Origin: a virus
Lineage: Duplodnaviria > Caudoviricetes
Virus record (IMG/VR): IMGVR_UViG_3300042972_000030
Location: 1 to 31,902 of that record
Length of the DNA: 31,902 nucleotides
Strand: one strand, 5' to 3'
Part shown: piece after piece, positions 1 to 21,663 of the stretch
Layout: each line of letters begins with the position of its first letter
Position numbering within the stretch: position 1 is the first letter of the stretch
Position numbers and translations under genes: made by a program
The notes under the pieces: model-generated
What the model saw: only the letters and a program-made list of their open reading frames with translations
The model's database searches: none
What the model was told of the DNA's origin: nothing

Positions 1-1731
1 ATGGAATTAACTGATGAGTGCCAGACTGAGGCCATCTCCGAGCGCCCACAGGAACTCATCAGACGGTTATTCAAGCATCGGCGTGTTGACCCAGTTTCAA
101 ACTGCTGGTTCTGGACGGGCGGTCATACGGATAATGGGTATGGACACGTGTATTTAGACAAATCGACGGTACTGGTTCACAGACTCAGTTATGAGATTTT
201 CCGTGGAGCTATCCCGGAAGCCCATATCGTTGACCACCGCTGCTTTAACAGACTCTGTTTTAATCCAAACCATTTACGCTGCATTACGATCGCGGAAAAC
301 AACCAACATAGATTCGGCGCATCAAGCAACAATCGGTCATCCGGCGTCAGAAACGTTTACTGGTATGGCTATAGGAAGAAATGGTTTGCGGCAATCCACC
401 ACAACGGCAAACAAATAAGAAGTGAATATTTCGACGATAAAGAACATGCATGCGAAGAGGCGGTAAGACTCAGAGCATTGTATTTCAAGGACCAAGGTGA
501 TAGCGATATGAAAGCCAAACACAGGAGGCCTCGCGGCACTGGAGCCGTATTTGTCGATTCACAAAATCGGTATACGTACACTCTGGAACTTCCCAATGAC
601 CCCGCGACAGGAAAACGCAGACGGAAAACATTTCGGAGCAAGGATCCGAATAAAGCCAAGGCCAAATATCTGGAAGCTCGGAAGAAACTTATATCTACCG
701 GAGTTCTTGCCTCGGATGTATCACCGAAACTGGCAGACTGGCTGGGACGCTGGCTTGAGGAGTTCAAGCGCCCCAATGTTAAGCCTCGCGTCTGGGAATC
801 CTACCGCTCCGATTGCCGGAACATCACGAACAGCATCGGTGCCGTCCGTATCGGGGATATCACTGCGGCGCATGTGCGCAAGTTGGAGAAGGACATCACC
901 TCGACGCGCAGCAGCAAGACCGCGCTCAACGCGTACCGTCGACTGAGCAACGCATTGGATGACGCCCTCGGCGAGGGATTGATAGAGGCTAATCCATGTG
1001 CCCATTGCGACCCGCCCAGGGTCGAGGCGAACCCGACGGTGATACTTGATGCCGGGCAGCCGGTGAAGCTCATACAGGCCGCCTCCAGTGGCTCTGGTGA
1101 GGTGAAGCGCAGGCGCGGGCAGAACAAGTGGCCGGACAGTGCCGAGGATGAAGCGATGTGGGGTCTCATGTGGCGGCTCGCGTTCGAGACCGGTATGAGA
1201 CAGGGGGAGCGGTTCGCCCTGACACCGGACGACCTGGTGCAGGTCGACGGCACGCCCGCGATCCACGTGTGCCACGAGTTGCAGCGGTATGCGAAGGGTG
1301 CGGTCATACCCTCATGGCTCAAGGCGGAACCGGTCGCCGGGGGAATATGGATGGTGCCGCCGAAGTCGAAGAAGGGCGAGCGTATCGTGCCCGTCAGCAA
1401 AGCCCTCTGGGATGACCTCTCCGCGTGGGCATCCGACCATGAACTGAAGTCTGGTGATCTGATCTTCACTCGCAAGGGACAACCATTGACCAACACGGTC
1501 GAACGCCGCCGCTGGTATCGCGCACTGGAGAAGGCCGGACTACCGAGAGTGACGATTCGCAGCGCACGCCACTACTTCGCCACCCAGCTCGCCATAGCCG
1601 GAGCCTCCGAAGACGCGCGCAAAAGCATCATGGGGCATGTCGACATCGGCACCACAGCACGGTATACGCATTGGGATGCGAAAGCGTTGTCGGAGATTAC
1701 CTGCAAGACGGCGCTGAGCGTGGAAAGTTAG
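1..1731 (+). CDS. int: Tyrosine integrase with in-frame N-terminal HNH endonuclease and AP2-like domain
   Basis: aa ~35-103 HNH motif (CWFWTG..GYG..HRLSYE..VDHRCFNRLCFNPNHL..EN); aa ~113-162 AP2-like (SGVRNVYW..KWFAAI..YFDDKEHA). From M170 (nt 508): arm-binding region (RPRGTGAVF..GKRRRKTF), core-binding region, and catalytic motifs TGMRQGE, PKSK, RSARH, MGH, Y. Confidence 0.92.
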   Translation: MELTDECQTEAISERPQELIRRLFKHRRVDPVSNCWFWTGGHTDNGYGHVYLDKSTVLVHRLSYEIFRGAIPEAHIVDHRCFNRLCFNPNHLRCITIAENNQHRFGASSNNRSSGVRNVYWYGYRKKWFAAIHHNGKQIRSEYFDDKEHACEEAVRLRALYFKDQGDSDMKAKHRRPRGTGAVFVDSQNRYTYTLELPNDPATGKRRRKTFRSKDPNKAKAKYLEARKKLISTGVLASDVSPKLADWLGRWLEEFKRPNVKPRVWESYRSDCRNITNSIGAVRIGDITAAHVRKLEKDITSTRSSKTALNAYRRLSNALDDALGEGLIEANPCAHCDPPRVEANPTVILDAGQPVKLIQAASSGSGEVKRRRGQNKWPDSAEDEAMWGLMWRLAFETGMRQGERFALTPDDLVQVDGTPAIHVCHELQRYAKGAVIPSWLKAEPVAGGIWMVPPKSKKGERIVPVSKALWDDLSAWASDHELKSGDLIFTRKGQPLTNTVERRRWYRALEKAGLPRVTIRSARHYFATQLAIAGASEDARKSIMGHVDIGTTARYTHWDAKALSEITCKTALSVES

Positions 1732-5630: not shown

Positions 5631-6485
5631 TTGACTACACAGATTCTATCACCGGAGGTCGTTGAACGCGACCCTTCCACAACGTTGGAGGTGAGCAGCA
5701 TAGGCATGGAATTGGATTCCACACGGTCGAAGCATGAGGCTGAGATTGCGGTTTCCGACATGTTGAACCATGCATATTCGTGGCTTTCGCGCGCGGTCGC
5801 CTCGACGGACACGGACCCGATGCATGTGAAGGAGGTTCGCGCCTATGCTTACACGATCTCCGAGGCCACCAAGCAACGTGACCTGTCACGCAGCATCAAG
5901 ATGGACGCCGAGGAAATGGCTCGCCGCGCAGACTATGCGCTCGGCAAGGCCATCAGAGACGGACAAGATGCAGAAACCATAGCTACACGCGGCGGGAATC
6001 ATGGCAACCAGCATGTAGGTGGCAGATTCCTTGACGAGGAATCTGCCAAACCTGCACCTTCTTCGTTCATTCCCAATAACGGGGAACGACAGGACATTCT
6101 TGCTCTTGCCAACAATGCGAATCCATCCGAATTCGAGGAGGCTCTGACGGAGGCGAAGGCGGAGGGGAATCTGAGCCGCGCGAATCTCGTGCGCAAGGTC
6201 AGTCCAGAACGTCATGATTCAGAACTGGATGTCATTGATGTGGATTCCGAGACTGTGGACGTGGAGACCGGCGAAGTAGTCGAGGAAACCCCGAAACGGT
6301 TAAACCGGAGCATGAGGATATGCGCCACCACGGTCGGCGACCTGGAAACCACAATGACCCTGCTCTCATACATCGACTACGAGTCAATCACCACAACACA
6401 AGCCCGCGACTGGGCGGCACGTCTTGAAGAGCCGATGAAGGCGCTTCGCAAATTCAACACTCAAATCAACAGGAAAGCAGCATGA
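5631..6485 (+). CDS. Hypothetical early phage protein
   Basis: TTG start with AAAGG SD; RGGNHGNQH linker; coupled to the next gene. Confidence 0.75.
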   Translation: MTTQILSPEVVERDPSTTLEVSSIGMELDSTRSKHEAEIAVSDMLNHAYSWLSRAVASTDTDPMHVKEVRAYAYTISEATKQRDLSRSIKMDAEEMARRADYALGKAIRDGQDAETIATRGGNHGNQHVGGRFLDEESAKPAPSSFIPNNGERQDILALANNANPSEFEEALTEAKAEGNLSRANLVRKVSPERHDSELDVIDVDSETVDVETGEVVEETPKRLNRSMRICATTVGDLETTMTLLSYIDYESITTTQARDWAARLEEPMKALRKFNTQINRKAA

Positions 6486-7297
6486 CCATGACAGAACAAG
6501 CATTGAAAATCACACGCACACCACACCTGAAGACCATCAAGGTCGGAGAATGCAGAATCAATTCGACCGCGCAGCGCGAGGCGAACGCGAACGCCATCTC
6601 CACTCTCGCAAGCCACTTCAATCCCGACCTGATGGGCATCCCCGTCGTCTCATACAGGGACGGCATCTACTGGATCATCGACGGACAGCATCGCATCCTC
6701 GCCCTCAAACAGACGCTCGGAGAGGATGCCGACGCATGGGAATTCGTCGCCGAAGTCTACCAGAACATAAGCGAGGAAGAAGAGGCTGCGCTATTTCTCG
6801 AATTGAACACAAGAAAACCAGTCAAGGCGTTCGACCGGTTCAAGGTAGGCGTGACAGCAGGTCTTCCCGAACCGTCAGACATCGAACGCATCGTCATATC
6901 ACACGGGCTGCGCGTCTCACAGGACGGACAGCAGGGGAGCATCAGCGCGGTCGGCGCTCTCGAATCCGTGTACCGCAAGCATGGTGCGAAGGCCCTGGCA
7001 TCCACGCTCACCATCATGAGTTCCGCGTGGGATTCCACCGTGTGGGACGCGTTCCTCATCCGCGGTATCGCCTTGTTCTGCAACCGGTATGCCACGCGCA
7101 TCAGCCAGCCCAGACTCATCAAACGCCTGAGCGAATACCCCTACGGCGTGAAAGGCATCAAGGCTGATTCCGCACGAACGAAACGCTCACTCGGCACCAA
7201 CCAAGACGTGGCGACGGCCTCGATCATCACCAACGCCTACAACAAGGGTCTTCGCGGTGTGAACTCGCTGGGCGACTGGTTTAAGGATCAGCAATGA
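6482..7297 (+). CDS. ParB/Srx-like DGQHR-motif protein (DUF6551-like)
   Basis: AQR..FNPDLMGIPVVS..YWIIDGQHRILAL..EEAALFLELN motif set. Confidence 0.8.
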   Translation: MTMTEQALKITRTPHLKTIKVGECRINSTAQREANANAISTLASHFNPDLMGIPVVSYRDGIYWIIDGQHRILALKQTLGEDADAWEFVAEVYQNISEEEEAALFLELNTRKPVKAFDRFKVGVTAGLPEPSDIERIVISHGLRVSQDGQQGSISAVGALESVYRKHGAKALASTLTIMSSAWDSTVWDAFLIRGIALFCNRYATRISQPRLIKRLSEYPYGVKGIKADSARTKRSLGTNQDVATASIITNAYNKGLRGVNSLGDWFKDQQ

Positions 7298-19907: not shown

Positions 19908-21026
19908 ATGGACACGGATTTTCGCGTTGACTTCCCGACGTTGGGTGATCTGATAGACGCTTGGATCGCGCGGCACTGCAGACAGCCTGACGGTCCTCTA
20001 CGTGGTAAGCCATTCCACCTGTCAGACTGGCAGTTCTGGGTGGCTGCGAATCGTTGGCGGATAAGAGACAATGCTCGTTTTGTGCCTGCAGCCGAGGTCA
20101 CCGTCGATAACCCGATGGTCTTGAACCAGGCGTTTGTCTACCGGCAGACGCTCACTGCTGCGCCGCAGAAGACCGGTAAGGGCCCATGCACCGCGTCATT
20201 CGTGGCGGCTGAGGCCTGTGGGCCTGTGGTGTTCGATGGGTGGGCCAAGGCAGGCGATGTCTATCGGTGCTCGGAGAACGGGTGCTCATGCGGCTGGTCT
20301 TACCGATATAACCCTGGCGAACCCAAAGGCAGGAGACATCCGTCGCCGTTGATCCAGATGACCGCGAACAGTGAGGATCAGGTCGAGAACATGTACCGGC
20401 CATTGAAGGCGATGATCCTTCTTGGTCCTCTCAAGGGGATGTTGAAGGTGCGTGAGGGTTTTATCCGCATCATTCAGCCGGGTGCCGATGAAACTGTTGC
20501 TGATTTGGATCTTGACCGCATCGATATCGTCACGTCCTCGGCACGATCACGATTGGGCAACCCCATTACCGATGCCGAGCAGGATGAAGCCGGATTGTAT
20601 ACGAAAACCAATGGAATGATCAACGTGGCAGACACGCAGCGCCGTGGGGCCGCAGGTATGGGAGGTCGTACACATGCCTGGACGAACGCCTGGGACCCCA
20701 CGGAAAACAGCTACGCGCAAAGGGTCTACGAATCGGGGTCGGAAGACATCTTCGTGTTCTACCGGAACCCAGACCTCGACACCAGTCTCAGAAGCAAGGA
20801 CGGCACGCCGTTCTCGTTCCAAAGGAAAAGCGAACGACGGAAAATCCTCCAATGGGTTTACTCAGGAAGCCCCTGGGTGGACCTTGAATCTATTGAGGCG
20901 GAGGCATCGGAGATGATGAAAACAGATCCGGCGCAAGCCGAACGATTCTTCGGTAACCGACTGGTGCAAGGTGCAGGGGCGTGGCTTGCCGATGGACTGT
21001 GGCAGGCCGCTTATGCAGGCGCATGA
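19908..21026 (+). CDS. terL: Terminase large subunit, N-terminal ATPase part
   Basis: LSDWQ Q-motif, Walker A PQKTGKG, Walker B AEQDE, coupling TNA. Confidence 0.88.
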   Translation: MDTDFRVDFPTLGDLIDAWIARHCRQPDGPLRGKPFHLSDWQFWVAANRWRIRDNARFVPAAEVTVDNPMVLNQAFVYRQTLTAAPQKTGKGPCTASFVAAEACGPVVFDGWAKAGDVYRCSENGCSCGWSYRYNPGEPKGRRHPSPLIQMTANSEDQVENMYRPLKAMILLGPLKGMLKVREGFIRIIQPGADETVADLDLDRIDIVTSSARSRLGNPITDAEQDEAGLYTKTNGMINVADTQRRGAAGMGGRTHAWTNAWDPTENSYAQRVYESGSEDIFVFYRNPDLDTSLRSKDGTPFSFQRKSERRKILQWVYSGSPWVDLESIEAEASEMMKTDPAQAERFFGNRLVQGAGAWLADGLWQAAYAGA

Positions 21027-21663
21027 ACTGTGGATAGCGAATCCACAGGACGGTAGCCGCATCTGCGCGGGATTTGATGGCAGTGAGAATGATGATTGGA
21101 CCTGTATCAAATGCGAAACCGTGGACGGTCTCATCTTCACACCCAGATATGGTCCTGACAGGCGTCCGACTATTTGGAATCCAGCAGAGTGGGGAGGCCG
21201 TATTCCGCGCAGCGAGGTCAATGCCGCTTGGGATGAGCTCAACCGCAGATACAAGATAGAGCGCGCATACTGCGATCCGGGTTTCCGTGACGAGGTGTCG
21301 TGGGAATCACAGATCGAGGAATGGGACCAGTTGTACGGCCCGAAGAGGTTCATCCCGTGGGTGATGAGCGGCAACAGCCGTGTGAATGCGGTGTATGAGG
21401 CTTTACGCCGTTTCGAATCCGATTTGGAGCAGCATCACCTTACGCAGGACGGCTGTCCGATCACACTGACTCATATGGGCAACGCTCGGAAGATCGCGAA
21501 GCCAGGAGACCGATACGGTCTTGGCAAACCTCAGCAGGACAGGAAGATCGATGCCGCTGTTACCACGATCCTCGCCCACGAGGCCGCCTGCGACGCTCGC
21601 GCCGCTGGCTGGGGCAAAGTCCAACACAACTTCATTCTTACAGCCAGTTCCACTAGGAGGTAG
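21013..21663 (+). CDS. terL: Terminase large subunit, C-terminal nuclease part (separate frame)
   Basis: ICAGFDGSENDDWT, YCDP, RKIDAAVT RNase H-like nuclease motifs. Confidence 0.85.
   Translation: MQAHELWIANPQDGSRICAGFDGSENDDWTCIKCETVDGLIFTPRYGPDRRPTIWNPAEWGGRIPRSEVNAAWDELNRRYKIERAYCDPGFRDEVSWESQIEEWDQLYGPKRFIPWVMSGNSRVNAVYEALRRFESDLEQHHLTQDGCPITLTHMGNARKIAKPGDRYGLGKPQQDRKIDAAVTTILAHEAACDARAAGWGKVQHNFILTASSTRR

Follow-up and report, generated by a model that had tools for sequence, protein, structure and literature searches.

The window, by which we mean the entire 31,902-nt stretch of DNA analyzed here, is a whole 31.9-kb virus record and encodes an integrase, a repressor-like protein, RecT, SSB, terminase, portal, capsid, and tail proteins. 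Its nearest integrases carry the names Bifidobacterium crudilactis and B. psychraerophilum, which makes a Bifidobacterium the likely host of this phage. At its very start lies a single reading frame that runs from an HNH-AP2 nuclease into a tyrosine integrase (Table 1). The initial annotation had claimed such a 576-aa protein, with an HNH and an AP2-like domain followed by an integrase from M170, and the ORF, Pfam, PHROG, and fold analyses all bear it out; the HNH-AP2-integrase fusion is real, reproducible, and unusual. The first start codon of the frame is the ATG at nt 1, and in the sister locus L001 a stop codon is found nine codons upstream.

Table 1 Features of the integrase locus and of related loci (window positions unless a locus is named).
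Feature	Position	Strand	Remarks
Single open frame, HNH-AP2 nuclease and tyrosine integrase, 576 aa	1..1731	+	ORF, Pfam, contigs
HNH (His-Me finger) domain, aa ~15-103	43..309	+	C35, H60, D78, H79, C81, C86, H91, N100 present
AP2-like DNA-binding domain, aa ~112-162, three strands and a helix	334..486	+	Model, structural neighbours
Junction codons KDQGDSD	487..507	+	Where free-standing relatives end; stop codon absent
Shine-Dalgarno-like AAGGTGAT	494..501	+	6 nt ahead of ATG 508
Off-frame stops	498..511	+	TGA TAG 498-503 (frame 3); TGA 509-511 (frame 2, ATGA overlap)
Integrase N-terminal (presumed arm-binding) domain	508..732	+	Allele type starts MKAKHRRPRGTG; flexible linker at aa 174-183, modelled with low confidence
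Integrase core-binding and catalytic domains	733..1731	+	R400, K455, R520, R523, H546, Y555
Tract 100% identical to G003 (L001), likely recently transferred	1..572	+	Runs on ~150 nt upstream of the window
Patch of synonymous differences from L001	573..636	+	12 in 22 codons, 7 consecutive, right after the identical tract
Arm-repeat regions	L001 2717-2981; L003 and L006 2702-2965; L027 3669-3930		
Second HNH-AP2, inserted after the integrase catalytic YTHW	L005:1169-1847		33-35% identical to the window's nuclease

The nuclease half matches Pfam HNH_3 over aa 58-101 (1e-13) and the PHROG 3593 HNH family over aa 18-163 (1e-39). Its nearest annotated relatives are HNH genes of the Arthrobacter phages Isolde, Hestia, and Persistence and of mycobacteriophage Cane17 (33-42% identity). 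In an alignment of 21 sequences, 19 of them unfused relatives, the window's nuclease keeps all eight invariant columns (H60, G69, H79, C81, C86, H91, N100, and A150) and 15/15 near-invariant ones, so that, judged on these residues, this half looks intact. Like a free-standing HNH-AP2 protein, it has an N-terminal HNH domain with its catalytic and zinc-binding residues and a C-terminal AP2 domain. The N-terminal model (pLDDT 81) places the HNH, the AP2, a low-confidence linker, and the integrase N-domain in this order; its best structural neighbour is I-HmuI (Z 6.7, rmsd 2.7, 80 aligned), and I-PpoI is another (Z 6.4), both Z scores being middling. Plant AP2 domains are found among the neighbours at equally middling scores (Z 5.2-5.4), with aa ~112-172 matching the GCC-box domain of AtERF1 (Z 5.4, rmsd 3.2, 55 aligned). 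The Pfam AP2 match is weak, below the cut-off, and its best stretch falls on the integrase N-domain. Solved structures gave no convincing match by sequence, and Foldseek none at E <= 0.001. In the full-length model aa 1-125 are of low confidence, as the alignment has only three rows there. The tandem of two beta-sheet/helix DNA-binding domains proposed earlier, one AP2-like and one in the integrase N-domain, is present in the predicted model.

The integrase half matches Phage_int_SAM_3 (244-295) and Phage_integrase (389-560, 2e-18). From the known motifs of tyrosine recombinases, we take R400, K455, R523, H546, and Y555 to be the catalytic set; the first His place of the His-x-x-Arg motif is held by an Arg (R520), which is invariant in an alignment of 29 integrases. 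The predicted N-domain (aa 183-233) consists of three strands and a helix, and no clear structural match was obtained for it. The arm domain has a low GC3 (0.45-0.48, against 0.76 for the core), which had raised the idea of a domain imported by the nuclease cassette; this was rejected, since L004, which has a different N-domain type and no HNH_3 seen, shows a GC3 of 0.47.

The two halves meet with no stop codon of the nuclease's own. M170 lies 92 residues past the DH motif, and seven unfused HNH-AP2 ORFs from six loci end 90-97 residues past theirs; together with the intactness of both halves, this spacing points to a whole nuclease gene minus only its stop. Stops lie close by in both other frames, so that a 1-nt indel of either sign would separate a nuclease gene from an integrase gene. 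The tandem TGA TAG first remarked upon at this place is thus there, and an indel would split the frame as described, but no such indel was seen in the contigs, and the pair carries little meaning, because TGA 498 lies within the Shine-Dalgarno sequence and the TAG is lost in a second allele (S168G).

The start signals of the two halves differ strongly. Against a generic anti-Shine-Dalgarno sequence, the 20 nt before M170 pair at -12.3 kcal/mol and those before M1 at +1.4, the starts of HNH-less int genes ranging from -7.6 to -12.4 kcal/mol by the same pairing. The suggestion that ATG 508 serves as an internal start is therefore well founded at the level of predicted duplex energy. A TG-C-TAATAT motif was noticed by eye in L001, 7 nt ahead of M1, and could be an extended -10 element giving a leaderless message; a promoter scan upstream of M1 returned 0 consensus sigma-70 sites, and no RNA dataset was listed with the fusion sequence. 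The plain integrase would be the dominant product, and the nuclease would be present in small amounts, as part of the read-through protein and in no other form. Should the cassette still home, it is this fusion that must act as the homing enzyme.

Two other readings draw on the same junction. The nuclease might be freed by recoding or processing, through a frameshift near codon 160-168 into TGA 498 or TGA 509 or through cleavage of the linker, which is disordered in the models; stops do lie at most five codons away in both other frames, but no slippery heptamer was seen by eye at 470-510 and TGA 498 belongs to the Shine-Dalgarno sequence, and we regard this as very improbable. The nuclease might also be a passive passenger, a once-mobile HNH-AP2 gene that lost its stop by an indel or at insertion, is hardly expressed, and would travel only by ordinary modular recombination with its attP and arm-domain type. 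The lack of a ribosome-binding site at M1 agrees with this, as do the off-frame stops around ATG 508 in both other frames, which resemble those of coupled genes.

An assembly or sequencing error joining two genes would be another explanation of the missing stop, as the window is a metagenomic record and the available evidence consists of contigs. Nevertheless, Logan contigs from 4/4 runs, belonging to four studies, cover nt 1-847 or 1-1031 and show neither a deviating letter nor a gap. The inspection of nt 470-510 called for by the initial annotation accordingly found no indel in any of the four runs, with the proviso that contigs rather than raw reads were compared and rare variants would stay invisible. 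The exact protein occurs on seven contigs and a 95% variant on ten, giving 17 contigs with two full-length variants; fused proteins lie on contigs of 72 kb and 106 kb and on a 39-kb record with direct terminal repeats and a joined attP, which may indirectly reflect integration and excision. Given this base-for-base agreement and a second allele with the same join, the idea that an assembly indel fused the genes by chance is disproved, and error of any kind has a negligible probability.

The protein cluster holds eight members, in six of which nuclease or junction residues are continuous in frame with the integrase; the other two are a sequence starting at M170 and a core fragment. In P0054 and P0055 the nuclease is ~78% identical to the window's and the join, FKDQGDxDM, is likewise in frame, although both were called from M57, so that their N-terminal HNH half may be broken, and the P0055 integrase is truncated at 230 aa. 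Hence close homologues do not all carry a stop at the junction. The full-length architecture recurs, in the 7 + 10 contigs and the diverged allele, but fusions detected at the sequence level all come from the protein's own cluster. A blastn search against annotated phages gave no match, and a first metagenome scan 0 confirmed matches.

The two fused alleles differ at 23/106 aa in the nuclease and at 2/75 in the arm domain. None of these substitutions fall on conserved columns (0/16, vs 23/90 for the others; p 0.003-0.014 over six tests with 19 references). The first conservation test, which used eight references and included the junction columns, had shown no signal (p = 1.0), a null result that would suit a passive passenger. 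However, the window retains all of its catalytic and zinc-ligand residues, as does the 78%-identical allele so far as its sequence can be seen, which is not expected of such a passenger. The nuclease conservation could also predate the fusion. That the frame stays fused in alleles with such different nucleases might instead indicate that the 576-aa protein is itself selected as a nuclease-armed integrase, whose integrase half would bring a nickase to att DNA or to the intasomes of sister phages; with a shared att core, this would bias which integration module survives superinfection. The retention of the frame has little power in this respect, as only seven junction codons can gain a stop.

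Sequences related to the window reveal the DNA preceding nt 1. In L001, from a 39-kb sister phage with direct terminal repeats (G003), this DNA holds four arm repeats and the 3′ half of a tRNA, with a 9-bp inverted repeat that encloses a 7-nt spacer. A full tRNA-Gly(TCC) was found at the corresponding place in 4/8 related loci scanned. Arm repeats and a core at a tRNA are the marks of a lambda-type integrase, and both are present in L001. Arm repeats were found in 7/24 distinct rows. Their spacing is 11/229/12 in L001 and in the HNH-less L003 and L006, and 11/230/12 in the HNH-less L027, which has in common with the fused allele both the TAGGCT arm core and the RRPxGTG N-terminus. Across the four loci that could be compared, the arm-repeat sequence tracks the N-domain type of the integrase, TAGGCT going with RRPxGTG and TAGTCC with RRTKGSG.

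The tRNA-type core lies 200-245 nt before int in 51/87 loci (a redundant set), a distance that leaves no room for an HNH gene. It lies 697 nt before int in 4/87 loci (two contigs, one sequence), the extra length being the nuclease, which is therefore present upstream of int in some close alleles of this locus and absent from others. The nuclease thus appears as an insertion into an otherwise standard module. No feature of the attP calls for an extra DNA-binding domain. The idea that the fusion alters directionality or arm binding finds no support here, as the arm spacing is equal with and without HNH and L027 has the same arm core; an AP2 domain acting as a required second arm-binding domain was likewise set aside on the arm geometry. 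The unchanged att geometry, the strong ribosome-binding site at M170 as opposed to none at M1, and the danger that a nuclease held at the att sites of its own phage might cut them all speak against an adaptive nuclease-armed integrase. The same geometry and start signals suggest that the plain integrase likely does the recombination.

Between the window and L001, 0 differences were found over nt 1-572 and 137 over nt 573-1731. These phages have only 5.9 of 31.9 kb in common, at 73-95% identity, and their longest exact run is this 572-nt tract, the next being 110 nt; in a contig with the same sequence as the window, the match to L001 goes on upstream for about another 150 nt, across the right arm. 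Such identity between phages that otherwise have little in common points to a recent transfer. Patchy presence and an identical tract form a homing signature, with which the cutting of competing int alleles, as envisaged from the start, would be consistent. However, long exact tracts are common in such mosaics, as a passive passenger would have it: a third phage, G004, shows exact runs of 898 and 516 nt with the window elsewhere, so that the 572-nt tract does not need homing. The synonymous patch that follows the tract may indicate the point of a crossover, or else a nuclease target that has been recoded.

G004 (locus L005; IMGVR_UViG_3300044212_000110) matches the window at 96-99% identity over some of its modules, has a different arm type and no nuclease upstream of int, and carries a second, unrelated HNH-AP2 cassette at the other end of the gene. 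This insertion is flanked by a repeated ATTGGG and supplies a replacement integrase C-terminus; its nuclease begins 2 nt past the integrase stop and, lacking a stop codon, continues in frame into the original tail, now displaced. Three members of this cassette's cluster have near-identical nucleases with three different tails, two of which match the tails of intact integrases. Copying into several alleles would leave such tails, and ordinary recombination could do likewise. To judge by its tail, which resembles the L005 replacement, P0054 may carry both cassettes.

With two distinct HNH-AP2 cassettes at one integrase, the locus looks repeatedly invaded by intron-less homing genes. The independent entry of a second HNH-AP2 into the same gene fits poorly with a passive passenger, which on balance we hold to be rather unlikely. 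The L005 cassette likewise retains a piece of integrase (the C-terminal helix), as might be expected if fusions were adaptive; the chance that both cassettes lie in frame by luck is ~1 in 9, which leaves selection for the fusion neither proven nor excluded. G004 also repeats 1.49 kb at both of its ends (L005 and L006); a joined attP precedes the end copy, whose integrase shows a 1-nt gap when compared with that of the first.

Several known systems resemble the locus in part. HNH-AP2 nucleases are placed in group 2 of the His-Me finger nucleases (PMC5714182), and HNH_3-AP2 (IPA-HNH) phage homing endonuclease genes are described as free-standing (Barth, Dunham & Seed 2023, PMC10448857). The window cassette is like the latter in its N-terminal HNH and C-terminal AP2, its intact motifs, its patchiness, its high-identity flank, and the lack of an intron or intein, but differs in having no stop of its own, in being fused to a whole tyrosine integrase, and in its site, attP/int instead of the neighbourhoods of polymerase, ribonucleotide reductase, and terminase genes listed for them (PMC10448857). 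Though it is thus not free-standing, its sequence suggests that it would work like the free-standing homing genes. A search for an intron or intein around the nuclease gave 0 Rfam matches in L095 and L103 and no intein among the Pfam matches, and this possibility was dropped.

Co-conversion by free-standing nucleases is established, with intronless homing of the T4 seg/mob genes and mobE in Aeh1 nrdA as examples (PMC2988022). The likeness lies in gene conversion of the flanks and in insertion in or beside a conserved gene; as described there, however, these genes split or flank genes of lytic phages, while the window has a temperate integration module and a fusion rather than a split. In fungal mitochondria, endonuclease ORFs bring a replacement gene end, as in Allomyces atp6 and Ophiostoma rps3 (PMC4019555). 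The L005 cassette has this layout, with a replacement C-terminus upstream and the old tail displaced behind the nuclease, and the window does not, as no old integrase start is stranded upstream. For tRNA-linked integrases such as KplE1 intS, attL and the arms are reported to overlap the int promoter, with autorepression (PMC2951348). Our locus has a predicted N-terminal arm-type domain and the same arm repeats, core in the tRNA anticodon arm, and int beside att, and is unlike that type, as there presented, in the ~0.5 kb of in-frame nuclease gene between arm repeats and integrase start. Finally, ShiLan has an unspliced homing HNH in a mycobacteriophage methylase gene (PMC11855218), similarly within a host reading frame and with no splicing element, but out of frame and internal, whereas the window HNH is in frame and N-terminal.

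No paper on a fusion of HNH and tyrosine integrase was found in a literature search that covered mostly journals outside subscription. Among candidate proteins of 316-1008 aa, 1/60 matched aa 20-170 and belonged to the same cluster; among those of 92-296 aa, 0/7 matched in a word-limited search. An integrase domain was found in 0 of the 27 longest among 150 representative matches. HNH_3 is present in 5/151 genomes of the genus, in none of which it was seen at a window-type integrase, and in 42/401 genomes of the order, where 0/20 loci examined (of 57 matches, with our own family profile) had an integrase-profile match. In the ESM Atlas, according to the annotation of the Atlas itself, NUMOD4 occurs in 82% of an integrase cluster of 124 members and HNH_3 in 26% of another of 54 members; taken as leads, these suggest that such fusions likely recur.

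These Atlas clusters, with their nuclease-associated domains, count in favour of an adaptive nuclease-armed integrase. In an unrelated phage, on the other hand, HNH and tyrosine integrase genes are adjacent in the same order and unfused, the HNH stop overlapping the integrase ATG by one base (L161:2061-3520). Taken with the arguments above, we think it unlikely that the fusion has been selected, and we give no greater credence to its more far-reaching version, a recombinase-guided gene drive in which the integrase half would direct the nickase joined to it towards the att core and the intasomes that sister phages have in common. Were that the case, one temperate phage would cut and overwrite its competitors' whole integration module (arms, arm-binding domain, and promoter), and the repeated acquisition of pieces of integrase by HNH-AP2 genes, seen at both gene ends and in other clusters, would be a selected strategy.

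The reading that we consider probable is an intron-less homing gene whose fusion to the integrase is a by-product, with recombination carried out by the 407-aa form. The HNH-AP2 gene, which lies past the attP arm repeats and ahead of the integrase start, would nick nuclease-free sister phages near int, and the cassette would be copied across with the flanking attP and int 5′ DNA, the missing stop being a by-product of the manner of insertion. Translation from the strong ribosome-binding site at ATG 508 would yield the ordinary 407-aa integrase, which would recombine at tRNA-Gly(TCC), and the nuclease would be made only as a 576-aa read-through at low level, perhaps from a leaderless message beginning at nt 1, with the flexible linker allowing both halves to fold independently. 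We infer expression, nicking, homing, the isoform ratio, and the leaderless start alike.

Homing genes are known to sit next to genes for replication and packaging in lytic phages. In the present case, both ends of one temperate-phage integrase have been occupied, with neither introns nor inteins, by two unrelated HNH-AP2 genes, each of which ends in sequence borrowed from the integrase. If the homing gene interpretation is true, the att arm type and the arm-binding domain move as a block, offering a route to the diversification of integrase specificity and to competition among prophages for one tRNA site. A fusion that is itself under selection would amount to a natural nuclease-recombinase chimera. 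The system is small and directly testable, and natural alleles with and without the nuclease exist.

Several other features were observed in these phages. The terminase large subunit of the window lies in two overlapping ORFs, 19908-21026 (372 aa) and 20971-21663 (230 aa); the split looks natural, as it also occurs in G004 and the two pieces belong to separate PHROGs families, and perhaps reflects a frameshift or a two-chain enzyme. In G530, from the Actinomycetales, a NUMOD4/HNH-like nuclease is apparently in frame inside a phosphoesterase-like ORF (L189:1564-2847, minus strand; family names assigned by eye). The cargo in the slot behind int differs among these phages: the window has a 239-aa ORF that matched neither Pfam nor PHROG (1769-2488), L001 an acetyltransferase-like gene, and L005 a two-gene pair that we presume, from its resemblance to such pairs, to be an antitoxin and a toxin. 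In the early region of the window, a DUF6551/ParB-like ORF (6482-7297) shows weak similarity to GmrSD and DndB.
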